From an uncultured Bacilli bacterium (GTDB lineage: Bacteria; Bacillota_I; Bacilli_A; RFN20; CAG-631): a DNA stretch of 64,000 nt. Location: NCBI GenBank assembly GCA_947626825.1, contig CANQTM010000001.1:32568-96567 (forward strand), given 5' to 3'. Shown here piece by piece: positions 5,348 to 64,000 of this stretch. Each line of letters begins with the position of its first letter. The first letter of the stretch is position 1. The position numbers were made by a program, and so were the translations under genes. The notes beneath the pieces were generated by a model. The model made no database searches, was not told the origin of the DNA, and worked only from the letters and a program-made list of their open reading frames with translations.

Positions 5348-5478
5348 TTTTTGTTCTCCTAAATTAAGTATAAACAAATATAAAAATACTTTTTGTCGAA
5401 CTTTGTTGCAAATCAATAAAATAAATAGCGGCCAAACAAATTATAATAGTAATAATTTATTTTTTCCATCTTTATTTT

Positions 5479-6297
5479 TTATAAATAATATATCATTGAA
5501 AATAGTCCTAGCAAAAACAAATATAATGAATAATATTTATATTTTTTTTCTAAATTTATTTTAAAAAAATATTTTAGTGATATTAAAGTAAATATAAAAG
5601 CTACAATCATGGCAACAATATATAAATAAATTGTGTTTTCATAAAATTGTTTTTGAAAATCATTTTCAAAAATGGATAAAAATGCCGAACCTATTGAAAT
5701 TGGTAATAGCAATAAAAAAGTAAATTCTTTGCCCTTTTGTTCATTTAATTTAGCAATTTTACTGCCAAATAAAGTTGTACCACTTCTTGAAATGCCAGGA
5801 AAAATGCTAAAAGATTGAAAAAATCCAGTAATTAATGTGTTTTTTAAACTATAATTTGATTGATTATTATTTTTAATTTTACTTGAAAGAAACAATATTA
5901 AACTTGTTATTAGAAAACCAAGGGCAACATATATGCCATTATCAAAAAAAATTTCAATAATTGGTTTAAATATAAATCCAAATATAGCTGCAGGTATTGA
6001 GGCAATTATTAAAAATATTATTGTTAAAAAATCTTTTTTAAATTCAATTTTTTTCTTAAATATAAATTGAAAAGAATTTTTTATGATTTGCTTTAATGAT
6101 TTAAAAAAGAAAATAATTAAGGCCAAAGAACTGGCTAAATGTAAATAAATAGTTAAATCTAATTGATTTATTGTTTGAATATTTAACAAATCAAATGTCA
6201 ATGCTAAATGTCCACTACTACTTATCGGTAAAATTTCAGTAATACCTTGAATAAATCCAATAATAATATATTTTAAGATCTCTAAAATTTTTTGCAT
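5479..6297 (-). CDS. uppP: Undecaprenyl-diphosphatase UppP/BacA
   Basis: Motifs GITEILPISSSGHL and PGISRSGTTL. Eight-TM profile. Confidence 0.8.
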   Translation of the reverse strand: MQKILEILKYIIIGFIQGITEILPISSSGHLALTFDLLNIQTINQLDLTIYLHLASSLALIIFFFKSLKQIIKNSFQFIFKKKIEFKKDFLTIIFLIIASIPAAIFGFIFKPIIEIFFDNGIYVALGFLITSLILFLSSKIKNNNQSNYSLKNTLITGFFQSFSIFPGISRSGTTLFGSKIAKLNEQKGKEFTFLLLLPISIGSAFLSIFENDFQKQFYENTIYLYIVAMIVAFIFTLISLKYFFKINLEKKYKYYSLYLFLLGLFSMIYYL

Positions 6298-8553: not shown

Positions 8554-8578
8554 AATTATCATTTAAATAATTAAAAAG

Positions 8579-8609
8579 TCGAGAACATTTTGAATTTCTC
8601 GGCTTTTTT
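8579..8609. terminator. Bidirectional terminator between the alpha-galactosidase gene and ispE
   Basis: gtcgagaa/ttctcggc hairpin flanked by A and T runs. Confidence 0.45.
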
Positions 8610-8628
8610 CAATGTATAAAATAAATAA

Positions 8629-9495
8629 TTAAAAAATTGTCTTTATTGTTTTATAAACGCCACAAATATCATAATCATTTTTATTAAATATTTGTTTTGC
8701 TTGTTTATATGGCAATGATTTTTCTGAAATAGCAAAGCATGCAGAACCAGAACCAGTTAATGAAACTATTTCAAAACCACATGAACGCATTCTTGTTAAA
8801 ATATCTAAAATATCTTTATTAAGTTTACATGCACTATCCATTAAAGAATTTGCAATATTTTTAGCAATTAATGAAAAATTGTTATTTTCTAATGCTTCTA
8901 TCAATTTATTATTATTTGAATGAGGCATATTTTTGTAATCAAGATTGTTATAAACATCTTTAGTTAAACATCCACTTTTTGGCTTAACAACAAAAATATT
9001 AGCATGAAATTTAGAATTAATTAAATCAATTTTAGTTCCTGTGTCTCTTACTCTTGCAAAACCACCATTAACCATATAAGCACCATCTGATGTTATTGAA
9101 TTTAAAAAATTTCTTTGGGCCAAATAATCCATTTTTTTCTTAAAATGATTGTTTAATATTTTTAATATAGTGGCAGCATTGCTAGAGCCACCACCAAGGC
9201 CACTACAAGCAGGTATATTCTTGATAAGTTTAATTTTAATAGAAAAATTTAAATTATAATATTTTTTAAATTTTTCAACGACTTTATAAATTAAATTATT
9301 ATGATCAGTAGGAACGTTTTCATCATTACATTCAATCATTATTTTATTATTATTATTATCGTTTAAAATATGAACATTAATGGTATCATATAAATTAATA
9401 GAACAATTAACCATATCTAATGTATGTAAATTAGTTGGTTTACTTTTATTTAATACATTTAATGATAAATTAATTTTTGCATAACTTTTTGCCAT
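8629..9495 (-). CDS. ispE: 4-diphosphocytidyl-2-C-methyl-D-erythritol kinase IspE (GHMP kinase)
   Basis: N-terminal AKINLSLNVL and GHMP motif PACSGLGGGSSNAA. Confidence 0.7.
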   Translation of the reverse strand: MAKSYAKINLSLNVLNKSKPTNLHTLDMVNCSINLYDTINVHILNDNNNNKIMIECNDENVPTDHNNLIYKVVEKFKKYYNLNFSIKIKLIKNIPACSGLGGGSSNAATILKILNNHFKKKMDYLAQRNFLNSITSDGAYMVNGGFARVRDTGTKIDLINSKFHANIFVVKPKSGCLTKDVYNNLDYKNMPHSNNNKLIEALENNNFSLIAKNIANSLMDSACKLNKDILDILTRMRSCGFEIVSLTGSGSACFAISEKSLPYKQAKQIFNKNDYDICGVYKTIKTIF

Positions 9496-9630
9496 ATAAT
9501 TTTTCTCCTTTGTAGCTATATTTTCCCTATTTTTATTATATCATTATAATAAAATATGTGATAAAATATTTTTTGCAAAGGAAACATTAATAAATAGTTT
9601 GTTCATGATTATTTATTAATAAAAGAAAAT

Positions 9631-10197
9631 ATGAACGATTATTCAATCTTATTTTTTTCTATATCAATGATAATTGTCTTTTTATATAGAATTATTTTTG
9701 GAATATTTTTACTTTGTAAGAAGAAATATATTATTGATGAAAAATATTATATAATGGTTTTTTATTGTTCTTTGGTTGCTATTTTAGTTTTATTTACTAA
9801 TTGGTGGATTGCAGGTTTAATTTTATATGCTTTATTGCCCTTTGTGCTTTTATTATATGTTTCGTTTGCACCAACTAGAAAATATTGGTTAGTTAATGGC
9901 TATGAACTTAGTGAAGCAACATTTTTAAATCAATTAATAATTGATAATCCCAAATTGAAAGATACAACTTATAGAGTTAATCATTTTCAAATTATAAAGA
10001 AAAAATCGGAACATAAAACTAAAATAGAATTCAAAAAAATTTCATTTGAAGAAAAAGAAAAAATTTTAAATGGCCTAATTCAAGTTTGTAAAGAAAGAGT
10101 CAAAAAATCAAACAAACATGAATTAATAACAATCTTTCTTTACTTAATTTTGATATTAATTTTAATTATAATTATAATTCTTACTATATTTTTATAA
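9631..10197 (+). CDS. Hypothetical membrane protein
   Basis: N- and C-terminal hydrophobic helices. Sits in the position of yybS upstream of gdpP but is not obviously related to it. Confidence 0.4.
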   Translation: MNDYSILFFSISMIIVFLYRIIFGIFLLCKKKYIIDEKYYIMVFYCSLVAILVLFTNWWIAGLILYALLPFVLLLYVSFAPTRKYWLVNGYELSEATFLNQLIIDNPKLKDTTYRVNHFQIIKKKSEHKTKIEFKKISFEEKEKILNGLIQVCKERVKKSNKHELITIFLYLILILILIIIIILTIFL

Positions 10198-10239
10198 CAA
10201 TTATTTGTTATAATAGTTTAAACAAAGGTGGGATTTTTA

Positions 10240-12249
10240 ATGTTTAAAAAGATAAAAAAAGATAGAGGAAATATATTATTGATATTTCTTATAGAATTTA
10301 TTATTTCTATAAGTTTGGTTTTAATTGCTTTCTTCCTTGACAATTATGAAATAGTACATATCTATTCGATATATGTCATGCTTTTATATTTTATTTTGAT
10401 ATGTTTTATCAATATATTTTTAATGTCTCATTTTTTAAATAAAGCAGAAAAATATCTAAATAGAACAGATATTACGATTGCATCTATTTTTGGTAATGAA
10501 GTGGCTCCAGTATTCGAATTTGGCAATATTGTTATTTTAGTTTATAACGAAGTTGAAGAGATTATTTGGATTTCCCAAACCACTTTATTAAGGAAAGAAG
10601 ATATATTAGGGCAAAAAATATATGAATTGATTCCTAAATTTGATGAATTATCATTAATGAGTAATTCAAAAGACGTTTATGTTAATTTAAATGGTAAAAC
10701 ATTTCAAATTGAAATTAATATTGGTATGAGAGTCATTTATTTAAAAGATACAACATCTCAAGTATTGCAAAGTGAAAAAATGGAAATGGAAAGACCTTTT
10801 ATTGGCCATATTGTTATTGATAATTATCAAGATGTTTATGTTTCTTTACAAGAATCTTCATTTGTTTTACATGTAAGTGAAGTAAAAGAATTAATTAATA
10901 ATTTTGCTAAAAAATATAATTTATTTATTCGTTCTTATAATAATGATTCATTTTTAATTATTGGTGAAGAAGAAAATTATTTAAATATTGCTAAAGATAA
11001 ATTTTCTATCATGGATGAAATGCGTGAAATGGCTGAAAAAAATGATAATCCTTTAACAATATCAATTGGTATTGGAAAAGGTAATACCACAAGTATTTTA
11101 AGAACAAGTGAATTGTCTTATATGGCTTTAAATATGGCATTATCACGTGGTGGTGATCAAGTAGTTATTAATGCTTTTGGTAAACCATTAGAATATTATG
11201 GTGCCAAAAATGAAATAAAACAAACAAGATCCCATGTTAGAGGACGTGTTCTTGCTGCATCATTAGCAAATTTAGTTAAAGCTAGCAAAAATGTTATTAT
11301 CACTGGGCATAAAAATGCCGATTTTGATGCTATTGGAGCTTCTCTTGGTATCTATGCAATTTGTAAAAGTTTAAAGGCAAATGCTTATGTATTATATGAA
11401 GATGATTTAATTGAACTTTATACAAAACGTGCTTTTAAATCAACATTTACTTCATCTGAAATTTCAGAAATGACAATTTCCAATCAAAAAGCTTTGCAAA
11501 TTGCTACAGAACAAACTTTATTAATTATTGTTGATACGCATAATAAAGATATGATTTTATTACCTAAACTTGTAGACATATGTAAAGATATTTGTGTTAT
11601 TGACCACCATAGAAAAGGAGATTCATTTATTGACAATCCTATTTTCCAATATCATGAACCCCAATCAAGTTCTGCTTCCGAATTGGTTACTGAACTTATT
11701 TTCTATCAAGCTAATAAAGTAAATTTATCTGAAGATATTGCTAATTTCTTATTAGCAGGAATGAGCTTAGATACTAAATTTTTCAAGGTTGGCACTAGTG
11801 GTAAAACTTTTGAAATGGCTATGATTTTGAAAAATTATCAAGCAAGTAGTGAAGCTGTCAGCGATTTCTTTAGAGAAGAATATGAAGAGAAAAAATTATT
11901 AAGTAGTATTGTCAATAGTGCTACTGCCATCGCTGTAGGAATTTATATGGCAAAAGCTAGCGAAGATGATATTATTACTCGTACTACATTATCTAAAGTT
12001 GCAGATGAAATATTAGATATTAAAGGAGTTCAAGCTGTTTTTGTTATTGGTAGAACAGCTAAAAATCAAATATCTATTAGTGCAAGATCAACACCAGATT
12101 TTAATGTTCAATTAATTATGGAATCATTAGGTGGTGGGGGCCATTTTTCCAAAGCGGCCACTCAAATTGAAAATACTTCAGTTGAAAATGCTGCATCTGC
12201 TTTAAGAGAAAAAGTAAAAATATATTTACGAGATGGAGGACGCGTTTAG
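10240..12249 (+). CDS. gdpP: Cyclic-di-AMP phosphodiesterase GdpP (DHH/DHHA1)
   Basis: Two N-terminal TM helices, a PAS/GGDEF-like middle region, DHH motif VIDHHR, and DHHA1 GGGGH. AAAGGTGGG RBS before the ATG at 10240. Upstream of rplI-dnaB as in Bacilli. Confidence 0.8.
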   Translation: MFKKIKKDRGNILLIFLIEFIISISLVLIAFFLDNYEIVHIYSIYVMLLYFILICFINIFLMSHFLNKAEKYLNRTDITIASIFGNEVAPVFEFGNIVILVYNEVEEIIWISQTTLLRKEDILGQKIYELIPKFDELSLMSNSKDVYVNLNGKTFQIEINIGMRVIYLKDTTSQVLQSEKMEMERPFIGHIVIDNYQDVYVSLQESSFVLHVSEVKELINNFAKKYNLFIRSYNNDSFLIIGEEENYLNIAKDKFSIMDEMREMAEKNDNPLTISIGIGKGNTTSILRTSELSYMALNMALSRGGDQVVINAFGKPLEYYGAKNEIKQTRSHVRGRVLAASLANLVKASKNVIITGHKNADFDAIGASLGIYAICKSLKANAYVLYEDDLIELYTKRAFKSTFTSSEISEMTISNQKALQIATEQTLLIIVDTHNKDMILLPKLVDICKDICVIDHHRKGDSFIDNPIFQYHEPQSSSASELVTELIFYQANKVNLSEDIANFLLAGMSLDTKFFKVGTSGKTFEMAMILKNYQASSEAVSDFFREEYEEKKLLSSIVNSATAIAVGIYMAKASEDDIITRTTLSKVADEILDIKGVQAVFVIGRTAKNQISISARSTPDFNVQLIMESLGGGGHFSKAATQIENTSVENAASALREKVKIYLRDGGRV

Positions 12250-12259
12250 GAGGAAACCT

Positions 12260-12706
12260 ATGAAAGTAATTTTAATACAAGATGTTAAAAATGTTGGTAA
12301 GAAAGACCAAGTTGTAGAAGTCTCAGAAGGATATGCTAACAATTTCTTAATAAAAAAAGGTTTAGCAATTGTTCAAAACAAAGCTAATTTAAATGATTTA
12401 AATCGACAAAAAGAAGAAAGTAAAAAACTAGATATTTTAAAAAGAGAAGAAGCAGTCGAATTAAAAAATAAGTTAATGAATATTGTTGTTGTTTTTAAAA
12501 CTCAAGCTGGTCTTGAAGGACGTCTTCATAATGCTATAACATCAAAAATGTTAGAAGATGAATTAAATAATATTTATAATATTAAAGTTGACAAGAAAAA
12601 TTTTAAAAATTTTATGCCAATTAAAGCTTTAGGTAAAGCTACTGTTGATGTAATTTTATATAAAGATATTATTGGCAAAATTAATATTGAAGTTGTTGAA
12701 AAATAA
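12260..12706 (+). CDS. rplI: 50S ribosomal protein L9
   Basis: MKVILIQDVKNVGKKDQVVEVSEGYANNFL. GGAGGA RBS. Confidence 0.85.
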   Translation: MKVILIQDVKNVGKKDQVVEVSEGYANNFLIKKGLAIVQNKANLNDLNRQKEESKKLDILKREEAVELKNKLMNIVVVFKTQAGLEGRLHNAITSKMLEDELNNIYNIKVDKKNFKNFMPIKALGKATVDVILYKDIIGKINIEVVEK

Positions 12707-12730
12707 TAAGTCTTAGGAGGGCTAAGAAGT

Positions 12731-14116
12731 ATGGATTTACCTTTTAATGCCGAAGCCGAAAAACAAGTTTTAGCAAATATGATATTTTCTCAGGATATTT
12801 TGATAGATACTTTATCAAGATTAACTGTAGATGATTTTTATGTTACTGAACATAAAATTATTTTTACTACTTTAAAAAATATTTTTGAAAGTAATAAAGC
12901 AAAAGTAGAACCATATGCATTAATAGATAAACTTTCTATTGATGGAAATTTAGAAAAAGTCGGGGATGCTTCATATATTTTAGAATTGGTAGATTCATAT
13001 CATGATATTGCAAATGCAACTTATTATATAAATTCTGTTTCTGAAAAAGCAATTTTAAGAAATATTATTGTTTTTTCAAATAATGTGGTTAATAAATGGC
13101 CGCAAGAATCATCTGGTGATATACCAAGTTATATAAACAAAGTTGAAAAAGAAATCACAGATATCACTAAAAAAAGAAGAGTTGAAGATTTTGTTCCTAT
13201 TACTGAAGCTTTTGATCGTTATAAAACAAGAGTGGCCTACATTAAGCAAAATGGAGCTAATGTTGATGGATTAACAACAGGATATAGTATTTTTGATAGT
13301 ATTACATTTGGATTTAAACCAAGTGAAATGACAATTTTAGCTGCAAGACCATCAGTTGGAAAATCAGCTTTAGCCTTAAATTTTTTATATCGTGTAGCTT
13401 TAAGAACTAAAAAACCATGTGTTTTTTTCTCGTTGGAAATGGGACTTGATTCCTTAACTGATAGGATTTTAGCTTCTAAAAGTGGTGTTGCAAATAGAAA
13501 AATTCAAACAGCAAATTTTAATAAAGAAGAAGAAAGACGCCTTCATAATGCTATGAGAGATATTTCTAATTCAAATTTATTTATTGATGAAACTCCAGCT
13601 ATTAAAGTTGTTGAAATTCGTGCAAAAGTTAATAAATTATATTCACGTTTTGGTGAAATGGGCTTAATTGTTATTGACTATATTGGTTTAATTACTCCAG
13701 ATGTTAAAAATAAAAAAGATGTTCCAAGAAGTTTAGAAATAGGTGAAATTTCTGCATCATTAAAAGCTTTAGCAAGAGATTTTAAATGTCCTATTTTAGT
13801 GCTTGCTCAATTAAACCGTAATGTAGATGATAGAAAAGATAAAACACCTATTTTTTCTGATTTGAAGGAATCGGGTTCTCTTGAACAAGATGCAGATGTT
13901 GTATTGTTTATTGATAGACCAGATTATGGAAAAAACGAAAAAAATGATCAAGAAGCTAATGATGATAAAGCTTCTGATTCAATGGTTAAAGTCATTGTTG
14001 CTAAAAATAGAAATGGTAGTACAGCTACTATTGATTTTATGTTTCAAAAGCATATTAGCCGTTTTGTCGAAATGGATAACACATTTGAAAATGAAAAAAA
14101 AGAAAATGAAGGATAA
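12731..14116 (+). CDS. dnaB: Replicative DNA helicase DnaB (DnaC in Bacillus nomenclature)
   Basis: Walker A GARPSVGKSALAL. RecA-like C-terminal domain. Conserved N-terminal FNAEAEKQVL. Confidence 0.85.
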   Translation: MDLPFNAEAEKQVLANMIFSQDILIDTLSRLTVDDFYVTEHKIIFTTLKNIFESNKAKVEPYALIDKLSIDGNLEKVGDASYILELVDSYHDIANATYYINSVSEKAILRNIIVFSNNVVNKWPQESSGDIPSYINKVEKEITDITKKRRVEDFVPITEAFDRYKTRVAYIKQNGANVDGLTTGYSIFDSITFGFKPSEMTILAARPSVGKSALALNFLYRVALRTKKPCVFFSLEMGLDSLTDRILASKSGVANRKIQTANFNKEEERRLHNAMRDISNSNLFIDETPAIKVVEIRAKVNKLYSRFGEMGLIVIDYIGLITPDVKNKKDVPRSLEIGEISASLKALARDFKCPILVLAQLNRNVDDRKDKTPIFSDLKESGSLEQDADVVLFIDRPDYGKNEKNDQEANDDKASDSMVKVIVAKNRNGSTATIDFMFQKHISRFVEMDNTFENEKKENEG

Positions 14117-14118
14117 GT

Positions 14119-14889
14119 ATGAAGTATTATTTGTTAGCTAGTGGCTCTGGCGGTAATTGTACCGCTTTAGAAAATGATAAACACGAAATATTGTTGATAG
14201 ATTGTGGCCTAGCCATTAAAGAAATAAAAAATAGGTTAAAACAAGTTAATCTTGATTTTTCAAATGTCAAAAAAGTTTTAATCACACACATGCATACAGA
14301 CCATGTAAAATCATTAAAATATTTTGATGAAAAAGATGTTTATATTAATTATTTATGTGGTATGAATGAATATAATCAATTTGATTATTACCAAACATTA
14401 GAAATTTTAGATTTTAAAATATATACATTACCATTATCACATGATACTCAAGGAACAACAGGTTTCTTAATTGAATATAATGGCGAAAAGATGGCTTATA
14501 TAACTGATACAGGCTATGTACATGAAAATGTTCAAAAAATAATTAATAATTGTGATATATATTGTTTTGAAAGTAATCATGATCCTAGACTTTTAATGTT
14601 AACTAAAAGGCCAATTATGTTAAAGCAAAGAATTTTATCTTCAGTTGGTCATTTATCTAATCAAGATAGCGCATATGTCTTAGGAAATATTATTGGGCCA
14701 AGAACTAAAGAAATTGTTTTTCTTCATCGCTCTTTAGAAGCAAATAGTGAAGAAATGTTACTTGAAACATTTTTGCAAATAATGGATAAAATGAAAGTGG
14801 ATATTTCAAAAATTAAAATTAATATTGCTAAACAAGATGAACCAATTATATATGGGCAAAATACACCATTAATAAAAATTACTAATTGA
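14119..14889 (+). CDS. MBL-fold metallo-hydrolase, YycJ/WalJ-like
   Basis: HMHTDH metal-binding motif and SGSGGNC N-terminus. Confidence 0.65.
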   Translation: MKYYLLASGSGGNCTALENDKHEILLIDCGLAIKEIKNRLKQVNLDFSNVKKVLITHMHTDHVKSLKYFDEKDVYINYLCGMNEYNQFDYYQTLEILDFKIYTLPLSHDTQGTTGFLIEYNGEKMAYITDTGYVHENVQKIINNCDIYCFESNHDPRLLMLTKRPIMLKQRILSSVGHLSNQDSAYVLGNIIGPRTKEIVFLHRSLEANSEEMLLETFLQIMDKMKVDISKIKINIAKQDEPIIYGQNTPLIKITN

Positions 14890-14933
14890 TAAAATATTAA
14901 AATTATTTTATAATTTGTGCATGGTGAACAAAA

Positions 14934-15482
14934 ATGATAACAAATAAAGCATATTTTAAATTGGAAAATCCAAATGAAAGAAATATTTTAAAAAAAATAT
15001 TAGAAGAATCTTTTCAAGAAATTTCTATAAATTGGTTAAATGATGTTGCAACATTAGAAACAGTTAATAAAGAAAATTTTCAATTACAATTATGCAAAAT
15101 TTTATCAACTGCATTTTTGGATTTTAATTTACAAGTTTCTTTTTTAATTGTTCCTTTTTTTAATGATATTTTTTTAAAATACATTTATAAACTAAATTCT
15201 GAAGTTGCAAGTGCTTTTGAAATATTTATAAGATATATTGATGATCCAATAGTAAAAAAAGATTCTATAGCATTAGTGAAAAAAATAAGTGATAATGATT
15301 TAGATACATTAAAAGCATTTTTAAAATGTAATGCAAATTCTTCTTTAACCGCTAATGAATTATATGTTCATAGAAATACTTTAAATTATCGCATTAATCA
15401 TTTAATAAATGATTTAAATATTGATATAAGAGACTTAAATACTTTGATGTTTTTAAATTTAATTATTAATATTTGTGCATAG
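14934..15482 (+). CDS. Putative transcriptional regulator with PucR-type C-terminal HTH
   Basis: C-terminal LTANELYVHRNTLNYRINHLINDLNIDIRD matches the PucR/CdaR HTH_30 pattern. Confidence 0.45.
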   Translation: MITNKAYFKLENPNERNILKKILEESFQEISINWLNDVATLETVNKENFQLQLCKILSTAFLDFNLQVSFLIVPFFNDIFLKYIYKLNSEVASAFEIFIRYIDDPIVKKDSIALVKKISDNDLDTLKAFLKCNANSSLTANELYVHRNTLNYRINHLINDLNIDIRDLNTLMFLNLIINICA

Positions 15483-15542
15483 TGCACAATACATTTTTAA
15501 AATTATGATGTATAATAATATCAAACAAAAGGAGAAATTCAT

Positions 15543-16739
15543 ATGGCAACATTAAAATTTGTAAATATTAATAAAGTTTACGATAGTAAAGTTCAGGCTG
15601 TTTTTGATTTTAATTTAGATGTAAGAGATAAAGAATTTATTGTCTTTGTTGGCCCATCAGGTTGTGGTAAAACAACAACATTAAGAATGGTAGCTGGACT
15701 TGAAGAAATTACTTCTGGAGAATTGTATATTAATGATCGTTTAGTTAATGATATTGCTCCAAAAGATAGAGATATTGCAATGGTTTTCCAATCATATGCC
15801 CTATATCCTCATATGACAGTATTTGACAATATGGCATTTGGTTTGAAACTAAGAAAAATTCCAAAAGAAGAAATTGAAAAAAGAGTTAATGAAGCAGCTG
15901 CTATTTTAGGCCTTGAACCTTATTTAAATAGAAGACCTAAAGCATTATCAGGTGGACAAAGACAAAGAGTTGCACTTGGAAGAGCAATTGTTAGAAATCC
16001 TAAAGTTTTCTTAATGGATGAACCTTTAAGTAACCTAGATGCAAAATTAAGAGTACAAATGAGATCTGAAATTGCAAAAATTCACCAAAGAGTAGGTGCT
16101 ACAACAATTTATGTTACTCATGACCAAACAGAAGCTATGACAATGGCAACAAGAATTGTCGTTATGAAAGATGGTCATATTCAACAAATTGGTACACCAA
16201 AAGAAGTTTATAACTATCCAGCAAATGTTTTCGTTGGTGGCTTTATTGGCGCTCCAGCAATGAACTTTTTACGTGGAAAATATATAGATGGTAAATTTGT
16301 TATTGAAGCTGATAAAACTCAAAGAAGAATTGAAATTGAATTAACAGAAGAATTACGTTTAAATATTCAAGGTTATGAAAATGAAGAAGTTATTTTAGGT
16401 ATTAGACCTGAAGATATTTATGTTGATGGACCAATGGTTGAAAAATATCCTGGTGCTACAACAGAAATTGAATGTGATGTTGTTGAACTTTTAGGCCACG
16501 AATTAATTGTTTATGGTTTTATGAATGGTCAAAGAATTATTATTAAAACAAGTGCAACACATGATATTCAAGTTCATGATAAATTAAACTTTACGTTTGA
16601 TATGAGTAGAGCTCATTGTTTTGATCCAACAACAACAACTCGTCTTGTTTATAAGAAAGAAAAACTTGGTGCTCAAAATAATGAAAATGTAGAAACTGAT
16701 GAAGCAGAATCATTAGAAAACACTGATAAAGCCAAATAA
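15543..16739 (+). CDS. Sugar ABC transporter ATP-binding protein (MsmK/MalK/MsmX type)
   Basis: Walker A GPSGCGKTT, signature LSGGQRQR, Walker B FLMDEP, plus a C-terminal TOBE/MalK regulatory domain. No cognate permease is adjacent. Confidence 0.8.
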   Translation: MATLKFVNINKVYDSKVQAVFDFNLDVRDKEFIVFVGPSGCGKTTTLRMVAGLEEITSGELYINDRLVNDIAPKDRDIAMVFQSYALYPHMTVFDNMAFGLKLRKIPKEEIEKRVNEAAAILGLEPYLNRRPKALSGGQRQRVALGRAIVRNPKVFLMDEPLSNLDAKLRVQMRSEIAKIHQRVGATTIYVTHDQTEAMTMATRIVVMKDGHIQQIGTPKEVYNYPANVFVGGFIGAPAMNFLRGKYIDGKFVIEADKTQRRIEIELTEELRLNIQGYENEEVILGIRPEDIYVDGPMVEKYPGATTEIECDVVELLGHELIVYGFMNGQRIIIKTSATHDIQVHDKLNFTFDMSRAHCFDPTTTTRLVYKKEKLGAQNNENVETDEAESLENTDKAK

Positions 16740-29514: not shown

Positions 29515-29603
29515 GAAGAAATACCCAAGCGGTTTAAGGGGGCAGTTTCGAAAACTGCTAGAGGTTAACACCTGCAAGGGTTCGAATCCCTTTTTCTTCG
29601 CCA
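29515..29603 (+). tRNA. tRNA-Ser (anticodon CGA)
   Basis: Acceptor stem GAAGAAA/TTTCTTC, anticodon stem GCAGT/ACTGC with loop TTCGAAA, long variable arm, T-arm AAGGG-TTCGAAT-CCCTT, discriminator G and encoded CCA. Confidence 0.8.
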
Positions 29604-55643: not shown

Positions 55644-56924
55644 TTATTCATTATCATTTTCTTTATCATTTTCAGTTGGTTCTAGATTAGTTATTGAAAC
55701 TCTTTCAATAGTAAATTGTGTAGCACTAATAATTTTTATGCGATAATGCCCGAATGTAAAACTTTCTTTTTCTTTAGGGAAATGTCCTAATTGATCAATA
55801 ACCCAACCACCAACAGTTGTATAGATATTATCATAGTTTTCGTAATCATATTCGATAGTATCGAAAAAATCATAAATATTCATATCACCAGCAACAGTAA
55901 ATGTTTTTTGATTAACTTTGTGATATTCTTCATTTTCTTCTTTGTCTTTTTCATCATAAATATCACCAACAAGTTCTTCAATGATATCTTCCATTGTCAA
56001 TATTCCTAAAGTTCCACCATATTCATCTTTTACAATGGCCATATGGATATGATATTGACGCATTTGTTTTAAAATTTCTGAAATTGATTGCGTTTGGAAA
56101 ACATATAATGGTTCAGTTAATAAATTGTTTATATCAATTGAATCACCATTTAAATGTTGTTTTATAATTTGTTTGGTATTTAAAATTCCAACAATGTTGT
56201 CAATATTATCTTTAAAAACAGGAATACGGGAATAATTCAACAATTTTGGATCATTTAATAAAGCATTGATATCATCATCAATATCAAAAGCATATACATC
56301 AGTACGATGCTTCATGATTTCAACAGCATCAACATCAATAAAATCGATTGCGTTTGTTATAAGAGTTTGAATATCTTCATTAATCAATCCTTGTGCTTCT
56401 AATGTATCAACCATTTCAATTAATTCATCATCTGTAACTTGAACTTTCTTTTTCTTTTTTGACAATAATTTATTAAATCCTTTTAAAGATATTTGTACAA
56501 TGAAAGTAATAGGATAAAAAATAATTTGAAAAAATTTTAAAGGAAATGAAAACAATTTACTAAAATTAAATGCATAACTTGTAGCAAGGGATTTTGGAAT
56601 TATTTCACCAAAAACTAAAATTACAAGAGTCATAATAATAGCAGCTAAAGTTTCTGCATTGTTTGGAAAAGTTTGAATTAATAAAATGGTAGCTAAGGAT
56701 GTTGCAGTAATGTTAACTAAATTGTTTCCAATTAAAATTGTTGTTATTGTATCGTTATAGTTATTGACAAAATAGTTAGCTAATTTTGCACCTTTTTCAT
56801 TTTTAGTTACAGCTCTTTCTAAACGAACTTTATTAACCTTTGCCAAAGCAATTTCAATTCCAGAAAAGAATGATGACAAAATCACACACAAAATTATTAA
56901 AATAACAATGATTACCTTATTCAT
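55644..56924 (-). CDS. CNNM/CorC-family protein (DUF21 + CBS pair + CorC_HlyC)
   Basis: Four TM helices, CBS domains, and a C-terminal transporter-associated domain. Confidence 0.75.
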   Translation of the reverse strand: MNKVIIVILIILCVILSSFFSGIEIALAKVNKVRLERAVTKNEKGAKLANYFVNNYNDTITTILIGNNLVNITATSLATILLIQTFPNNAETLAAIIMTLVILVFGEIIPKSLATSYAFNFSKLFSFPLKFFQIIFYPITFIVQISLKGFNKLLSKKKKKVQVTDDELIEMVDTLEAQGLINEDIQTLITNAIDFIDVDAVEIMKHRTDVYAFDIDDDINALLNDPKLLNYSRIPVFKDNIDNIVGILNTKQIIKQHLNGDSIDINNLLTEPLYVFQTQSISEILKQMRQYHIHMAIVKDEYGGTLGILTMEDIIEELVGDIYDEKDKEENEEYHKVNQKTFTVAGDMNIYDFFDTIEYDYENYDNIYTTVGGWVIDQLGHFPKEKESFTFGHYRIKIISATQFTIERVSITNLEPTENDKENDNE

Positions 56925-57964
56925 GATTTTTTCTTCTTCTTTCCTTCATTACTTTCATCAATATCACCAACTAAACGTTCTAAAACATCTTCCATTGTAA
57001 TAATTCCAACAGTTTTATCTTTGTTATCTTTAACAATAGCCATATGTGTTTTCTTTCTTTTAAATTTCATAAAAACTGTTTTTATTTCAGAAGCTGGTGT
57101 AGTAAAAATAGGCTTAACCAACATGTCTTCTAAGTTATATTGTTCATTTGACATTAATACTTTAAGTAATTTTTGCAAATGTAAAATACCAATTATGTTA
57201 TCTATATTTCCTTTATATACAGGAATTCTTGTATATGGATTATCTAAAACATAATCAATTAATTGTTCTCTATTTAAGTTTAAATCAATATTATATGCTA
57301 CTATTTTATTTTTTGGGCACATAACATTTTTAACTCTAATACTTTTAAAATCAACAGCTGATTGAATAATTTGCTTTTCTTGTTCTTCAATTAAACCTTC
57401 TTGTTGAATATTTCCAACAATTTGTTGAAAATCTTCTTCATCAATTAAAGGATCTTCTTTTTTTGCTTTAAATATTTTTTTTAATAATCCTATCAAACCA
57501 CTAAATAATAAAGAAATAGGTGTTAAAATCCAAGCTAAAGCAAAAATTGGGTAAACAATAATTTTAACTATAAAATTAGCAAATGTTTTACCAATATTTT
57601 TAGGAATTATTTCACCAAAAAAGAATACTATTAATGTTGAAAAAATAATAGCAAATAAAGAACCTACTTCTTCTCTTGACATATTTTGAAAAAAAGTAGT
57701 ATTTTGCACTAAATTTGTGCATAAAATTGTGGCTAAAATAGAAATTAAAATATTAACAATATTGTTGCCAATTAAATTGGTAATAATATATTTATCAAAA
57801 TTATTTAAGCATCTAACTACAAGTTTAGAACTTTTTTTCCCATCATCTGCTTCAACTCTTAATTTTATTTGATCACAATATGAAAAAGCACTCTCACTCA
57901 TTGAAAAAAAAGCCGAAAGAAATAAAAGTATAACCAATAGTATAGATCTGGTCAGGCTCGACAT
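56921..57964 (-). CDS. CNNM-family protein (DUF21 + CBS pair), tandem paralog lacking the CorC_HlyC tail
   Basis: Same architecture minus the C-terminal domain. Overlaps its downstream neighbour by 4 nt. Confidence 0.7.
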   Translation of the reverse strand: MSSLTRSILLVILLFLSAFFSMSESAFSYCDQIKLRVEADDGKKSSKLVVRCLNNFDKYIITNLIGNNIVNILISILATILCTNLVQNTTFFQNMSREEVGSLFAIIFSTLIVFFFGEIIPKNIGKTFANFIVKIIVYPIFALAWILTPISLLFSGLIGLLKKIFKAKKEDPLIDEEDFQQIVGNIQQEGLIEEQEKQIIQSAVDFKSIRVKNVMCPKNKIVAYNIDLNLNREQLIDYVLDNPYTRIPVYKGNIDNIIGILHLQKLLKVLMSNEQYNLEDMLVKPIFTTPASEIKTVFMKFKRKKTHMAIVKDNKDKTVGIITMEDVLERLVGDIDESNEGKKKKKS

Positions 57965-58599: not shown

Positions 58600-58747
58600 T
58601 TAAATCACCAATAAATATTATAACTTTAAAATATTTGAAAGAAAACACTTTTCTATAATATTTAAAAATATTATTGAAAATCGCTTGCGTTTTGTGTTAT
58701 TATATTTAAGCGTATGTAGTATTTGTTTTTTTAGGAGGTATTACGTA

Positions 58748-59551
58748 ATGAAAAAAATTAAGGCATTTTTTGCTAGAGTTGGTAATTATATTAAAAATAC
58801 AGCTTGGATTCAACCTTTGTTGATTGTTATAGTTATTTTCGTTCTTTTATTTTCTTTAGCACCAATTACTGGTTGTACTAAATCATTTTGGGCTAGAGTA
58901 ACAACAGTTAATAAAATGGATAAAATTTCTTATAAAGAATATATTGAAAAAATTAAAGGTTCAAAAGAAGATGATAAATTTATCATTGTCTTTACTCAAG
59001 AAAATTGTGATGTTTGCCCTATGTTCTATAAAAATATGAATGATTATTTAAAAAATGATTATGGCAAAAAAGCACAAGATTTTGAAATTTTTAATGTTGA
59101 TTTGTCAACTAAATCTAGCAAAGTAAAAATTAATGGTTCAAAATATCAAGTTTATAAAGATAAGACATTAGGATTAGTTTCTCCTACAAGTTATGCAAGC
59201 AATGAAATTATTGCCCAAGATTATGCTAAAAAACTTGATGAAAGAATTAAAACATTCAATGAAAGAGCTTTTGATGGTGCTAATAGCAGTGAATTAGAAC
59301 CTGTAAGTGAAAGTGCTTATACATATTTATCAACTCCATTAGTTATTTGGTATGAAGGTGGTTTAGAAACTAGAATTTCAAATAAATATGATTCTCTTGA
59401 AAAACAATCAGATAACAAAAAAGTTAAAACAACTGAATTTAAAAAGTACATTGAAAACTTTGAAGGTGAAACTAAAGCTGAATGGAATGATGAATTTGAT
59501 TTAACATTCAGTGAATATAAAAACATTAAGGATGCATTTGAAGAGCACTAA
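58748..59551 (+). CDS. Membrane-anchored thioredoxin-like CxxC protein
   Basis: AGGAGGT RBS. N-terminal TM helix. Thioredoxin-fold-like FIIVFTQENCDVCPMF. Confidence 0.55.
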   Translation: MKKIKAFFARVGNYIKNTAWIQPLLIVIVIFVLLFSLAPITGCTKSFWARVTTVNKMDKISYKEYIEKIKGSKEDDKFIIVFTQENCDVCPMFYKNMNDYLKNDYGKKAQDFEIFNVDLSTKSSKVKINGSKYQVYKDKTLGLVSPTSYASNEIIAQDYAKKLDERIKTFNERAFDGANSSELEPVSESAYTYLSTPLVIWYEGGLETRISNKYDSLEKQSDNKKVKTTEFKKYIENFEGETKAEWNDEFDLTFSEYKNIKDAFEEH

Positions 59552-59573: not shown

Positions 59574-60230
59574 ATGAAAAAAGGATTTCTCCTTTCAATT
59601 ATTTTATTAGCAAGTTTTGTTAGTTGCGCTAATGAAAATGATTTGGCATTAAAAACTATCACCTACAAAGAATATATAAATAAAGTTTCTAATGAAGTTG
59701 AAAATGATAGAGATATATTTATTTTTACGACATCAACTTGCACACATTGTCAAAAAATTAGACCACTTTTAAATAAATATGTTGCTTTAAATCCAGATGT
59801 TAATATTTTTGAATTATCTTTAGATGTTAAAATTTCTACTTTTGGTGATAATACATATATATTTAAAGATAGTTCAATGGGATATTTCACTGGTGATGCA
59901 AAAGATGATTGTATAAAATCATTGGATAATCGTATTGCTTTATATGCTAATGCAAATAATTTAGAAAATAATTCTAGTACTAATGCTTTATATTCTCCAA
60001 TCGATATTGAAGGAAATAGCAAATATATGTATGTTTATACTCCATTAATTATTTTTTATGAAAGTGGTTTAGAAGTAAATATTATTAATAATGTTGAAAG
60101 TTTATTAACATATGATAAAAAAAATAAAATTGAATATGATTCATTTGCTAAAATATTTGAATTTCCAACAGAAAAAAATCAATGGGATAAACCATTTGAT
60201 TTAACTTATTCAACTGCTTTTACTCTTTAA
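59574..60230 (+). CDS. Thioredoxin-like CxxC lipoprotein (paralog of the preceding gene)
   Basis: Lipobox LASFVSC. IFIFTTSTCTHCQKI motif. Shares C-terminal blocks (PL[VI]I[WF]YE.GLE and FDLT[FY]S) with the upstream paralog. Confidence 0.55.
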   Translation: MKKGFLLSIILLASFVSCANENDLALKTITYKEYINKVSNEVENDRDIFIFTTSTCTHCQKIRPLLNKYVALNPDVNIFELSLDVKISTFGDNTYIFKDSSMGYFTGDAKDDCIKSLDNRIALYANANNLENNSSTNALYSPIDIEGNSKYMYVYTPLIIFYESGLEVNIINNVESLLTYDKKNKIEYDSFAKIFEFPTEKNQWDKPFDLTYSTAFTL

Positions 60231-60265: not shown

Positions 60266-60876
60266 GTGATAAATAATCACTTAACGATTATATAAATCTA
60301 TATCAATACCGCATTTAGGAGGCAAACTATCACTAAGATTCCAAAACGTTTTATCAAATGTAGCGTTAATTTTTGTATAAGTTTGTGATTCATTGAATGG
60401 AAAATAAATAATCATTTCGTCTTCAAATTCAGGTATATCATAATAACTAATTGGAAAGACGCCCTCAGACCAAGATTGCATATATTCACCATTTGCAAAA
60501 ATATGATCAACACCACGAATATATGCTATAACTAAATTATAATTACAGTTTTCAGATTCAGATAAGTTGTTAATTAATTTTATTTCAAATCCTTTACTAT
60601 TAATAGATATAAACTCTACATCATAAGAAAAATCATATTCAAGATAATCATATTCACTATTGTTGACTTCCCATCTATCTCCAGGTGAATATTTTATAAC
60701 TTTTTCACCATTTGAACATGATATAAGAGGAATAGTCAAAGAAAGAATCATTATTTTTTTTAACATCTTCATTTCCTCCTTTGTTGTCATCATTATATCA
60801 TATTAAATGTTTATTGACAATTTATACAATTCACGATATTGTTAAAAAAATTAACCTGCAATATATGGAATTGTCC
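60266..60876. repeat. ~611 bp duplicated segment, copy A (~85-90% identical to 62704..63317)
   Basis: Carries the lipoprotein gene, its TTGTCA-17-TGATATAAT promoter and RBS, and a remnant of the 3' end of an upstream gene. Confidence 0.9.
60281..60772 (-). CDS. Secreted lipoprotein of unknown function, copy A
   Basis: AAGGAGGAA RBS lies within the annotated MMTTKEE, so the true start is MKMLKK. Lipobox LISC. Confidence 0.6.
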   Translation of the reverse strand: MKMLKKIMILSLTIPLISCSNGEKVIKYSPGDRWEVNNSEYDYLEYDFSYDVEFISINSKGFEIKLINNLSESENCNYNLVIAYIRGVDHIFANGEYMQSWSEGVFPISYYDIPEFEDEMIIYFPFNESQTYTKINATFDKTFWNLSDSLPPKCGIDIDLYNR

Positions 60877-61052: not shown

Positions 61053-61355
61053 TTAAATTTGCTCATCGCTAGTACTACTTTTTTTAAATATTTGTTTAAT
61101 AATTTGATTTGCACCTGTAGAACTTGCACCACTTACAATTCCAACACCTAATGCAAACCATACATTATCTGCATTTAATATCATTTTAGGAGCAGTAAAA
61201 TAAATTAAAACACCCAATATGCCCCCAATAACTGCAACTAATATTGGAATCAATTTGTATGCTTCTTGCTTCTTTTTAAATAAAATCTTGTAAATTTCTC
61301 CTATGATATAGCAACATACAACTATAATAGGAACACATGTAAAATTCATCATCAA
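61053..61355 (-). CDS. Phage-type holin (phiLC3/A118 Hol-like, class with GxxxG-rich second TM helix)
   Basis: Three hydrophobic helices. LIPILVAVIGGILGVL...VGIVSGASSTGANQIIKQIFKK resembles the A118/phiLC3 holin family, recalled from memory. Confidence 0.45.
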   Translation of the reverse strand: MMMNFTCVPIIVVCCYIIGEIYKILFKKKQEAYKLIPILVAVIGGILGVLIYFTAPKMILNADNVWFALGVGIVSGASSTGANQIIKQIFKKSSTSDEQI

Positions 61356-61400: not shown

Positions 61401-61706
61401 TTATGTATTATCTAGTTTATACATGTCATCAACTCGTTTCGTAACATTAACTACTGACTCTTCAACTTTTGCAAGACGCTCAGCAATATTACGATCACGC
61501 TCATCTACTTTATTTAAGTTTTTTTCAACTCGATCTACACATGCTTTGATATAACCAATATCTGAAAACATCACCCCTTCTGTTTTACCATCAGTTCTTT
61601 GTTCTTGCTTATCGCTTCTTTTAAATGCTAAATAAGCAAATACAATACTTGAAATAGATGCAAAGAAACCTACTAAAATAACAATTAATTCAAAAGTCAT
61701 AACCAT
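61401..61706 (-). CDS. BhlA/UviB-like holin-like protein (N-terminal TM helix + charged coiled-coil tail)
   Basis: Architecture match: a TM helix at residues 4-27 followed by a Lys/Glu/Asp/Arg-rich helix. Confidence 0.4.
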   Translation of the reverse strand: MVMTFELIVILVGFFASISSIVFAYLAFKRSDKQEQRTDGKTEGVMFSDIGYIKACVDRVEKNLNKVDERDRNIAERLAKVEESVVNVTKRVDDMYKLDNT

Positions 61707-61865
61707 CAGCTCCTTAATCTTTTTGTTAAGAAATTTATTTCTTCATAAATAAGGAAACGAAAAGTTCAAAAGTACATGGTTTATTTTTAACTTTTTATTT
61801 TAATAAATAACATTAAAACAAAAAAATGTTAACGCCTTTTGGGCATTAACACTTTTAAAAAATTA

Positions 61866-62684
61866 TTAAAATATTTTATATGTTTTTGTTATATCATGTG
61901 ATTCGATGAAATCATTATATTCCACAATATCACAAGATCTATGAAATGCATTTAAAATTATTGATGCTATGTATTTTTTACTTTCATTTATTGTTTTAAA
62001 TGAAATAGGATTGTTAAATAATACCACGAGATCTACGTCGCTATTTTTGTGATATTCATTTTTATACATAGAACCAAACAAGAACATTGATTTAATTTCT
62101 TTTTCTACTAATTCATCTTTTTTACTTTGAAGTAAATTTATTATTTCTTCTTTTAAATTATGGTTATTTTCATTATTATTGATAAATAATGTATTAAAAT
62201 AACTATATAAAAAATATATACGAGAATTAACATTTTTTATTGTTTGATAAACTTCATACAAATTTGCTGGTGGTACACACGGATAATTGTATTGTCTTGT
62301 CAAATATATAGTCAATAGTAGAAAAAACAAATAACTTTCAGATGATGCCATTTCTTTAAATTTTATTAGATATCTATCTAACCATTCAAACACACGAATT
62401 CCTGGTTTTATTCTTTCAATTATTAAGTCAAGATTTACAATCTTCTTGTCATATATCATTTCAAAACATCTTTTATATTCTAATTCATTAGAATTAATTG
62501 GTAATGAATATATCATTTGGAACAATTTAAAATAATTTAATATTTCCTGATTAAAATTTGTATCGTTATTTTGTATTCTAAAAGTAATTTTCTTTATATC
62601 ATCGTATTTATGAACACCATAATAATTGTCATAAAATGATGATATTACTTTGCAAGGAAACGTTGAAGTATATGTTGTATCCAT
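61866..62684 (-). CDS. Protein with a C-terminal minimal nucleotidyltransferase (Pol-beta superfamily) domain and an N-terminal uncharacterised helical domain
   Basis: FLFGSMYKNEYHKNSDVDLVVLF fits the GS-x(9-13)-DhD NTase motif. Confidence 0.5.
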   Translation of the reverse strand: MDTTYTSTFPCKVISSFYDNYYGVHKYDDIKKITFRIQNNDTNFNQEILNYFKLFQMIYSLPINSNELEYKRCFEMIYDKKIVNLDLIIERIKPGIRVFEWLDRYLIKFKEMASSESYLFFLLLTIYLTRQYNYPCVPPANLYEVYQTIKNVNSRIYFLYSYFNTLFINNNENNHNLKEEIINLLQSKKDELVEKEIKSMFLFGSMYKNEYHKNSDVDLVVLFNNPISFKTINESKKYIASIILNAFHRSCDIVEYNDFIESHDITKTYKIF

Positions 62685-62703: not shown

Positions 62704-63317
62704 GTTATAAAATAATCACTTAATGATCGTATAAATCTATATCAATACCGCATTTAGGAGGCTCACTATCACTAGGATTCCAAAACAAATTATCAAATGT
62801 AGCGTTAATTTTTGTATAAGTTTGTGATTCATTGAATGGAAAATAAATAATCATTTCGTCTTCAAATTCAGGTATATCATAGTTGGGTCTTGGAAAGATC
62901 ATGCCTTCAGTATGAAATTGTATAAATTCACCATTGGCAAAAATATAATCCACTTCACGAATAGATGCTATAACTAAATTATAATTACAGTTTTCAGATT
63001 CAGATAAGTTGTTAATTAATTTTATTTCAAATCCTTCACTATCAATAGATATAAATTCTACATCATAAGAAAAATCATATTCAAGATCATCATATTCACT
63101 ATTGTTGACTTCCCACCTATCTCCAGGTGAATGTTTTATAACTTCTTTACCATTTGAACACGATATAAGAGAAATAGTCAAAGAAAGAATCATTATTTTT
63201 TTTAACATCTTCATTTCCTCCTTCGTTGTCATCATTATATCATATTAAATGTTTATTGACAATTTATACAATTCACGATATTGTTAAAAAAATTTACCTG
63301 CAATATATGAAATTGTT
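62704..63317. repeat. ~614 bp duplicated segment, copy B
   Basis: See copy A. Confidence 0.9.
62720..63214 (-). CDS. Secreted lipoprotein of unknown function, copy B
   Basis: Same promoter, RBS and signal peptide as copy A. Mature part ~85% identical. Confidence 0.6.
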   Translation of the reverse strand: MKMLKKIMILSLTISLISCSNGKEVIKHSPGDRWEVNNSEYDDLEYDFSYDVEFISIDSEGFEIKLINNLSESENCNYNLVIASIREVDYIFANGEFIQFHTEGMIFPRPNYDIPEFEDEMIIYFPFNESQTYTKINATFDNLFWNPSDSEPPKCGIDIDLYDH

Positions 63318-64000
63318 TCATTACACTTTATAACATTTCCATGACTATAATTACTTTTATAAACATTATAATATTGAGCATTATTAGGATCCTCTATTGC
63401 CTCATCATAAATACCATTTATAATGTCGTTCATAATAGGATAGTTTGTTAATTCGAATTCCATTTTGTCATTATGAATCCATGAATCTATCAAATCTTCT
63501 AATACTTGCAAACCAGTAACTAATAAAGCAGATTCTAAGTTGAAAGATGGCAAGCAACAATTTTTATAACAAGTTTTATATGTTCCATATTGGTAATAAC
63601 AATTTCCGCACATAAATTGTTTTGAGTTATAACATTCTAAGGACCTATCTGTTATACCAACAATTTTAGCGTTTTCAATATCGGTTTGTTCACCAATTGA
63701 AACTAATCCATCAAATGGATATTTATAAATACTATTTGGAATATATACACCATTATAATCACAATAACCAGGAATTACCTTGAACAAATGTCCTGAAACA
63801 CTTGAAATTACTGTTAAGTTAGGTCTATTTGATAATTTATTCCATCGTCCTTTAACATCATCGAAATAATCAGATTTAGCTAAGATCTCAACACATTCCT
63901 TATATTTTTTGGCAGTTCCTGGTTTGTCTTGAATTACTTCATACAAATCTGTTCCAAAAATTTTTGTAAGTACATTTACATTGATTAATTTTTTTGCCAA
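63284..64000 (-). CDS. Cys-rich hypothetical protein, N-terminally truncated by window end
   Basis: Open frame runs to nt 64000. Cys cluster CYNSKQFMCGNCYYQYGTYKTCYKNCC. Its last eight codons are duplicated upstream of lipoprotein copy A. Confidence 0.4.
   Translation of the reverse strand: MAKKLINVNVLTKIFGTDLYEVIQDKPGTAKKYKECVEILAKSDYFDDVKGRWNKLSNRPNLTVISSVSGHLFKVIPGYCDYNGVYIPNSIYKYPFDGLVSIGEQTDIENAKIVGITDRSLECYNSKQFMCGNCYYQYGTYKTCYKNCCLPSFNLESALLVTGLQVLEDLIDSWIHNDKMEFELTNYPIMNDIINGIYDEAIEDPNNAQYYNVYKSNYSHGNVIKCNETISYIAGKFF

Follow-up and report, generated by a model that had tools for sequence, protein, structure and literature searches.

A minimal nucleotidyltransferase fused to a predicted Fic-like domain in a hydrolase-lipoprotein cassette of gut Bacilli, with a possible role in toxin self-protection

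FicL-MNT and its family

We examined the gene at positions 61866 to 62684 of a 64,000-nucleotide (nt) stretch from an uncultured Bacilli bacterium (contig CANQTM010000001.1 of assembly GCA_947626825.1); the whole stretch is called the window here, and the product of the gene FicL-MNT. A first-pass annotation, made from the letters of the window, had described this product as an N-terminal part without motif followed by a C-terminal minimal nucleotidyltransferase (MNT) domain. We found that the N-terminal part has a predicted Fic-like fold and that the gene follows a lipase-like α/β hydrolase gene and a lipoprotein gene in a conserved cassette, and we suggest, tentatively, that FicL-MNT may keep the hydrolase silent inside the producing cell. 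The features within the gene are as follows.

61866..62684, minus strand: FicL-MNT, whole gene, stop included, from the list of open reading frames (ORFs) and the relatives
62169..62684, minus strand: N-terminal all-α domain, residues 1-172, with a predicted Fic/Fido-like fold, without the Fic motif; I14, Y27, K31 and P139 invariant
61869..62153, minus strand: C-terminal MNT domain, residues 178-272
62031..62075, minus strand: catalytic motif G204-S205-X10-D216-x-D218 (GSX10DXD), invariant in 37 sequences and of the same form as the motif of MntA (PMC7641770)
61929..61931, minus strand: third catalytic Asp, D252, an invariant column and the counterpart of D71 in MntA

The ORF list gives an ATG-start ORF of 272 codons plus stop that fills exactly these positions; a ribosome-binding site, GGAG, is seen in the sequence 5-6 nt 5' of the start, and the product contains the peptide FLFGSMYKNEYHKNSDVDLVVLF. 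Nine full-length relatives (266-272 aa, 34-80% identity) were found in a collection of 5.8 billion proteins, and a profile of the N-terminal 185 residues reached 48 clusters among 1.84 billion representatives, so the ORF is not due to chance. The family is rare and, since nearly all clusters are 260-278 aa long and the shorter matches resemble fragments, it has essentially one architecture. Residue conservation was computed over an alignment of 37 members, in which I14, Y27, K31, P139, G204, S205, S215, D216, D218, F247 and D252 are invariant. A scan of 185,579 species-representative genomes (GTDB) returned a single match, one decayed copy of the cassette at locus L007 (uncultured Bacilli metagenome-assembled genome MGBC100287, mouse gut), where a lipoprotein gene is followed by a 64-aa FicL-MNT stub at 5450-6136, without the hydrolase. 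At the sensitivity used, tblastn against plasmid and phage collections gave no match to the cassette, and scans of IMG/VR with the nucleotidyltransferase (NTase) alignment and with the hydrolase alignment found nothing; a metagenome scan with the hydrolase alignment returned generic lipase elbows only. None of the three cassette proteins has a PHROG match. The other 272-aa ORF of the window, at 5479-6297, was considered as a FicL-MNT paralog and ruled out, being an unrelated polytopic membrane protein.

The C-terminal nucleotidyltransferase domain

The Pol-β-type signature proposed for the C-terminal part is confirmed by two Pfam families, both above their curated cut-offs (Polbeta, PF18765, 43.2 bits against 26.9 over residues 180-258; NTP_transf_2, PF01909, 40.8 bits against 21). 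Two details of the first-pass annotation needed correction: the domain starts near residue 178 and not near 195, and the spacer, given there as eleven residues, is ten (GS-X10-DXD, with V between D216 and D218 in the window protein). The downstream acidic residue that it had anticipated is D252, which all 37 relatives retain. In MntA, GSX10DXD drives tri-AMPylation of HepT, as established by mutagenesis and crystallography, and the third Asp, D71, binds the second metal (PMC7641770). This protein-AMPylating antitoxin is also the nearest solved sequence to the domain (E 5.5e-6), and the predicted fold superimposes on solved MNT structures, MntA among them. Judged by sequence, the C-terminal domain is a bona fide MNT with a complete set of catalytic residues.

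Among further matches of this domain, the NCBIfam MntA equivalog scores 33.3 bits, below its 60-bit cut-off; an NCBIfam ANT(9) match reaches 25 bits against a cut-off of 340 and covers only the NTase core, as does a weak MTPAP-like match in the Pfam scan, also far below its cut-off. The structural match to Hailong HalB is weak, and in PADLOC-DB 2.0 the MNT core hits candidate models only (PDC-S09, 48 bits), with no system of that database matched in all its components. No HEPN (DUF86) toxin with RX4HXY lies beside FicL-MNT, whose neighbours are the lipoprotein and an XhlA-like protein. Given the 33 bits against a cut-off of 60 and the lack of a HEPN partner, FicL-MNT is, by these comparisons, not a canonical MntA.

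The N-terminal domain

The N-terminal domain (~170-190 residues) has no sequence match in Pfam, NCBIfam, PHROG or the PDB, in line with the earlier statement that it lacks a recognisable motif. Two independent AlphaFold2 models agree on a Fic-like fold, in which an all-α domain contains the helical core α2-α5 and flanking helices, and in which β bridges are limited to single residues at 4 and 62. The full-length model has a predicted template modelling score of 0.62. Fic enzymes are defined by the motif HxFx(D/E)GNGRxxR (PMC3667792). This motif occurs in 0 of the 37 members, in which not even [GA]N[GK]R is present, and an active Fic enzyme was therefore ruled out. When 34 N-terminal domains were scanned individually against Pfam with E-values up to 10, neither Fic (PF02661) nor another family was matched, and hhalign of the domain against an alignment of nine plasmid-borne class II Fic proteins gave a probability of 0.07%. 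The β-hairpin flap (target dock) and the inhibitory helix of Fic proteins, (S/T)xxxE(G/N), were also looked for; what was seen are the single-residue bridges of the models and the sequence SxxxDN in 21 of 37 members. By its predicted fold, the domain is probably a very divergent, catalytically dead Fic/Fido relative and not a member of the Fic enzyme family, and because the active-site motif is lost it probably acts as a binding module and not as an enzyme.

We also looked for the Rx4-6H motif and four-helix geometry of HEPN proteins, a check suggested by the first-pass annotation. No Arg or His is conserved in the N-terminal domain across the alignment, so that no Rx4-6H can be placed, and the model does not show the HEPN four-helix arrangement; the lack of conserved Arg or His and of any HEPN match excludes a HEPN identity. 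The comparison with HEPN/MNT or AbiE modules did not hold in other respects, as no HEPN, DUF86, AbiEii or DUF1814 match was found and the Pfam and PADLOC scans showed neither a DUF1814/AbiEii profile nor an AbiEi-type neighbour. At locus L015, a 72-aa ORF directly after FicL-MNT (9015-9233) carries a remnant of a Doc/Fic motif, YNDGNKRTA (Pfam Fic, E 0.0095); in this defence island the remnant may be a relic or have arisen by coincidence.

The hydrolase-lipoprotein cassette

The two upstream partners of FicL-MNT and a second copy of one of them lie in the window as follows.

63284..64000, minus strand: lipase-like α/β hydrolase, 3' part (238 codons) of a 421-aa gene that runs off the window; the full gene is present in locus L001
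62720..63208, minus strand: lipoprotein gene encoding 162 aa (start MLKKIM, lipobox LISC) and ending 35 nt before FicL-MNT; candidate extracytoplasmic immunity protein
60281..60820, minus strand: repeat of the lipoprotein gene, orphan-like, together with its promoter (60820-60792) and ~35 nt from the 3' end of the hydrolase gene, recognised from direct repeats and alignment

The order hydrolase, lipoprotein, FicL-MNT is kept in 12 of the 12 loci with a readable intact gene, even for FicL-MNT members at 21-25% identity, and the genes abut or overlap in L011 and L015. Across loci, the hydrolase measures 399-424 aa and the middle protein 111-184 aa. The hydrolase has a lipase-type GxSxG elbow and a Ser-Asp-His triad: the elbow GHSQGG with Ser152 and the residue Asp280 are invariant, and His403 is present in at least 90% of the sequences. 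Four Cys are also conserved, Y179 beside the elbow is invariant, and no signal peptide is predicted. Among solved structures, bacterial lipases of families I.1/I.2 come nearest to the elbow region (PDB, E 6e-6), and the Pfam family PGAP1 is matched at 24.2 bits. Neither the hydrolase nor the lipoprotein matches a PADLOC model.

The middle genes all encode a signal peptide and a lipobox Cys (14/14). Mean pairwise identity is 27% for the lipoprotein, 34% for FicL-MNT and 42% for the hydrolase, so the lipoprotein evolves fastest. In the window, the lipoprotein region (62710-63270, minus strand) and the second copy (60281-60820, minus strand) form direct repeats of 92-93% identity, and the copies differ in a short patch, where FIQFHTEGMIFPRPNY stands against YMQSWSEGVFPISYY, a difference that an orphan immunity module would be expected to show. 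A lipoprotein duplicate with a stub of the hydrolase is the orphan-module pattern typical of toxin-immunity loci.

Next to the second lipoprotein copy, two paralogous thioredoxin-fold proteins (58685-59551 and 59574-60230, both plus strand) with CxxC motifs (CDVCP, CTHCQ) and N-terminal membrane or lipoprotein anchors adjoin the island. With such neighbours and four conserved Cys in the hydrolase, extracytoplasmic disulfide formation in the released hydrolase is conceivable.

Promoters and terminator

We read the regulation of the cassette from sequence motifs, three of which lie in the window.

63234..63262, minus strand: σ70-type promoter TTGTCA-17-TGnTATAAT with an extended -10, between the hydrolase stop and the lipoprotein start; promoter scan, 11/12 with TG
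61822..61856, minus strand: hairpin and T-run like an intrinsic terminator, directly 3' of FicL-MNT; terminator scan, fold -23.2 kcal/mol, z -5.8
61740..61783, minus strand: promoter-like element of 44 nt, TAAACCATGTACTTTT-N5-TTTCGTTTCCTTATTTATGAAGA, 5' of the XhlA-like and holin gene pair; unique in the window, 0 expected

An equivalent internal promoter was found in 7 of the 9 loci having a spacer, in five lineages, with a perfect 12/12 in L065; 2.7% of control windows of equal length score as well. The terminator hairpin is identical in L010 and replaced by a different one in L008. The 44-nt element, written as the consensus TA[A/G]ACCAYGTACTTTT-N5-TTTMGWYTCCTTATTTATGAAGA, has a second, nearly identical copy upstream of the hydrolase and just after a sigma-like gene, outside the window (L001 855-900, with equivalents in L008 and L010), and the neighbouring sigma-like protein probably acts on it as a promoter. 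This protein matches only the generic sigma70-ECF model (46 bits).

From these motifs, the lipoprotein and FicL-MNT appear to be co-transcribed. Because the internal promoter and the terminator frame them and the other genes share the 44-nt element, they are predicted to form a separately promoted and terminated unit, set apart from the hydrolase and the holin unit. In loci of the colicin and bacteriocin type, immunity is expressed constitutively, whereas the genes for toxin and release respond to induction. By analogy, the layout seen here is an 'attack versus protect' wiring of that type.

Neighbourhood and mobility of the cassette

Downstream of the terminator lie two small phage-related genes.

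61401..61706, minus strand: XhlA-like 101-aa protein with an N-terminal transmembrane segment and a coiled coil; phrog_1863 at 62 bits, weak XhlA match; not a conserved partner
61053..61355, minus strand: holin of the Phage_holin_5_2 / Hol44 family; Pfam 48.9 bits and PHROG holin families; not a conserved partner

With the lipoprotein upstream, the XhlA-like and Hol44 genes downstream and the second lipoprotein copy beyond, the island of holin and lipoprotein genes described in the first-pass annotation is indeed present. In the lineage of the window, the cassette stands behind a sigma-70/ECF-type gene and ahead of the phage-derived XhlA-like and Hol44 holin genes. Holins accompany FicL-MNT only in its closest relatives and are absent from most cassettes, and modification of the holin, one of the two targets proposed earlier, is for this reason unlikely. 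The other proposal, a protective role in which a toxin is modified, fits the hydrolase linkage in 12/12 loci and the co-transcription with the lipoprotein.

The cassette is mobile and is carried on prophages and conflict islands of low-GC gut Bacilli. Prophage-type copies lie between ParB-methylase and terminase genes (L018, L065-67), and other copies lie among defence genes, with ThsA_Macro, TIR and DUF4365 in L015/L016, with AAA_23, MC2 and CTD6 in L008/L010, and with AAA_13 in L062. At prophage-type loci the cassette is followed by Amidoligase_2 and GGACT/AIG2 (γ-glutamyl cyclotransferase-like) genes (L018 10888-12336; L021 2809-4143; L065 10379-11873), another conserved accessory pair. Locus L008 holds, in the same operon and downstream of the holin, two 279-aa paralogs that combine a helical N-terminal domain with an MNT domain (8318-9157 and 9157-9996), and directly after them a gene for an RHS-repeat protein of more than 1855 aa (10013-15577). 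The N-terminal domain of one of these paralogs is homologous to that of FicL-MNT (hhalign 95%). Because the paralogs precede an RHS gene, MNT fusions of this kind are suggested to accompany different toxins.

Elsewhere in the window, two tandem paralogous DUF21/CBS-domain (CNNM/CorC-type) membrane proteins are encoded at 55644-57964 (minus strand), just outside the island, and the sole Rfam match is a tRNA gene at 29515-29600 (plus strand). The GC content is ~25% across the window, and the island resembles its surroundings in composition.

Comparison with known systems

FicL-MNT shares with MntA the NTase family, the GSX10DXD motif and the third Asp, as well as the proposed logic of silencing a neighbouring toxin by AMPylation. 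It differs from MntA, a protein of ~100-140 aa without an extra domain that is paired with a HEPN RNase carrying RX4HXY, in having a Fic-like N-terminal domain of ~170 aa and in its partners, a lipase-like hydrolase and a lipoprotein. FhepTA (PMC13000451) is also an MNT fused to a second domain of a toxin-type superfamily, and its self-modification via a linker is a precedent; however, its MNT is N-terminal and the partner is an active HEPN RNase, whereas in FicL-MNT the order is reversed and the Fido-like domain lacks a motif. The class II Fic proteins (C. difficile Fic, 4x2c; human FICD, 4u04; SoFic, 3zcn) differ from FicL-MNT, which has no motif, Pfam Fic match or profile similarity, and it should not be classed as a Fic enzyme. 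ANT(4'), ANT(9) and Lnu likewise combine a Pol-β NTase core with a helical domain, and in Hailong, the MNT-type enzyme HalB holds an effector in check.

As for the cassette, the lipase toxin TslA and its lipoprotein immunity protein TilA have been described in Bacillota (PMC10730906), and this pair and the Tle/Tli systems of type VI secretion resemble the cassette: a short gene array holds a lipase-type toxin (here a putative one), a neighbouring immunity lipoprotein (here a candidate) that evolves fast and has several copies, and at least one accessory gene. The lipoprotein here is predicted to be exported, is adjacent and fast-evolving, and is duplicated with a 3' stub of the putative toxin gene. 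TslA differs in its LXG-like domain, its type VII secretion, its small helical partners and the lack of a nucleotidyltransferase, whereas here we saw no type VII secretion signal, and release would presumably be by a holin or phage lysis.

UviA-UviB-Bcn and TcdR-TcdE are sigma-plus-holin toxin loci with a dedicated inducible regulator. By its sequence motifs, the cassette resembles these and colicin loci in the predicted placing of a putative toxin and its release under an inducible regulator with constitutive protection, and in a small sigma-like gene beside a putative, presumably holin-dependent toxin without signal peptide. To our knowledge, none of the colicin/bacteriocin and sigma-plus-holin toxin loci contains an NTase. 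MNT-type nucleotidyltransferases are very abundant, and we know of a job only for those paired with HEPN proteins.

A possible safeguard against the cassette's own hydrolase

We regard the domains and catalytic residues of FicL-MNT, its linkage in the cassette and the arrangement of promoters and terminator as established. For the roles of the partners as toxin and immunity protein, for the target and for the reaction, we propose the following. The hydrolase would be an antibacterial toxin that attacks membranes and leaves the cell through holin action or phage lysis, and the lipoprotein would confer immunity on the outer face of the membrane, as TilA does for TslA. FicL-MNT would be the inner half of self-protection: its Fic-like domain may dock the hydrolase, and its MNT domain may attach a nucleotide, AMP being the likeliest, to a hydroxyl group either on the hydrolase or on FicL-MNT itself; in the latter case Y27, invariant in the family, is a candidate site, by comparison with the fused MNT-HEPN proteins that AMPylate themselves. 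Nucleotidylation would keep the toxin silent in the cytoplasm of the producer, as MntA does to HepT. FicL-MNT probably has a role in protecting the producer cell; that it is a cytoplasmic safeguard that docks and nucleotidylates the hydrolase toxin in the manner of MntA is the reading we prefer, although, argued by analogy, it falls somewhat short of being an even bet. The further idea that a pseudo-Fic domain was recruited as the target-docking module of an MNT, giving an enzymatic cytoplasmic immunity against a holin- or phage-released lipase toxin in a two-compartment system with the lipoprotein outside and covalent nucleotidylation inside, is possible and decidedly more doubtful.

The toxin and immunity assignments draw, by analogy, on the lipase elbow and triad, the missing signal peptide of the hydrolase, the lipobox in 14/14 middle proteins, the fast evolution of the lipoprotein, its duplicate with a hydrolase stub, the RHS toxin of L008 and the TslA/TilA precedent, and the placement of FicL-MNT on the protective side is suggested by the internal promoter, the terminator and the distinct 44-nt element. 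Several points weigh against the safeguard proposal. Action of the MNT domain on the hydrolase, or on any protein, is argued from precedent, and so are the toxicity of the hydrolase and the immunity function of the lipoprotein themselves. The Fic likeness of the N-terminal domain comes from predicted structure, in which the geometry between the two domains is uncertain. A covalent block on a toxin that is to be released would have to be reversible or partial, and the TslA precedent works without cytoplasmic immunity (PMC10730906). Finally, several loci lie in defence islands or prophages, where an anti-phage role would fit equally well.

Alternative explanations

Such an anti-phage role had been raised in the first-pass annotation, and we keep it as a rival that is unlikely and not the best fit. 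The cassette would be an abortive-infection triad in which the hydrolase acts as a suicide effector that destroys the membrane of its own cell, FicL-MNT guards it by modification and holds it inactive until an infection disturbs this state, following the logic of type VII toxin-antitoxin systems or Hailong, and the lipoprotein is an accessory or exclusion factor. The cassettes among defence genes in L015/L016, L008/L010 and L062, those at accessory prophage positions, the PDC-S09 match of the MNT domain and the weak structural match to HalB are consistent with it. However, the hydrolase, the lipoprotein and the N-terminal domain match no PADLOC model, the exported lipoprotein found in every cassette (14/14), its orphan-like duplicate and the RHS toxin encoded in one operon are characteristic of toxin-immunity loci that act between bacteria and not of abortive infection, and a separate constitutive-type promoter for the lipoprotein and NTase suits immunity genes.

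FicL-MNT might instead help the hydrolase to mature or be exported, either by binding it as a chaperone or adaptor, in the way that TlaA1/TlaA2 serve TslA and Lif serves family I lipases, or by adding a nucleotide needed for activity or release. The strict hydrolase linkage would agree with this, as would the two paralogs directly before the RHS toxin gene in L008, one with a homologous N-terminal domain, the resemblance of the hydrolase elbow to foldase-dependent family I.1/I.2 lipases, and the need of the lipase toxin TslA for helical partner proteins (PMC10730906). We consider this quite unlikely. One would look for an export factor among the induced genes, whereas FicL-MNT is placed on the constitutive-type lipoprotein promoter with a terminator before the holin unit, which shares its element with the hydrolase; moreover, a chaperone has no need of a fully conserved catalytic set, and most cassettes lack holins.

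That FicL-MNT is an autonomous NTase unrelated to its neighbours appears improbable. Its substrate, bound by the N-terminal domain, would then be a nucleic acid or a small molecule, whether for resistance of the ANT/Lnu type or to shield a lipid or cell-wall substrate, and the weak ANT(9) and MTPAP-like matches, together with an NTase plus helical-domain architecture typical of antibiotic NTases, point in this direction. All such matches are far below their cut-offs (25 against 340 bits for ANT(9)) and confined to the NTase core, however, and the order with hydrolase and lipoprotein is invariable across very divergent members, which speaks for a common function of the three genes.

A fused toxin-antitoxin of the HEPN/MNT or AbiE kind, with an N-terminal toxin neutralised by its own MNT, is very improbable: MNT-HEPN fusions exist and self-AMPylate (PMC13000451) and Y27 is an invariant Tyr in the N-terminal domain, but that domain has no conserved Arg or His and thus no Rx4-6H, no DUF86, AbiEii or DUF1814 family of Pfam is matched, and a Fic-like domain from which the Fic motif is absent is an unlikely toxin.

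Implications

The catalytic domain and the general logic of FicL-MNT are already known; its N-terminal domain falls under no curated family, and our literature searches returned no description of a Fic-like/MNT fusion or of an MNT in a lipase-lipoprotein cassette. If the toxin is silenced by FicL-MNT, immunity to interbacterial toxins would gain a new, enzymatic class, and the N-terminal domain would exemplify a dead enzyme fold put to new use as a substrate adaptor; the cassette would also be a clean three-gene system for how toxins without signal peptide stay safe before lysis-type release. If the pseudo-Fic domain indeed docks the target, the 'enzyme antitoxin' logic of type VII systems would extend from HEPN RNases to secreted interbacterial toxins. 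Should the cassette serve defence instead, a system with a lipase effector and an MNT guard would be added to those known. In either case, the N-terminal domain merits a family entry of its own.

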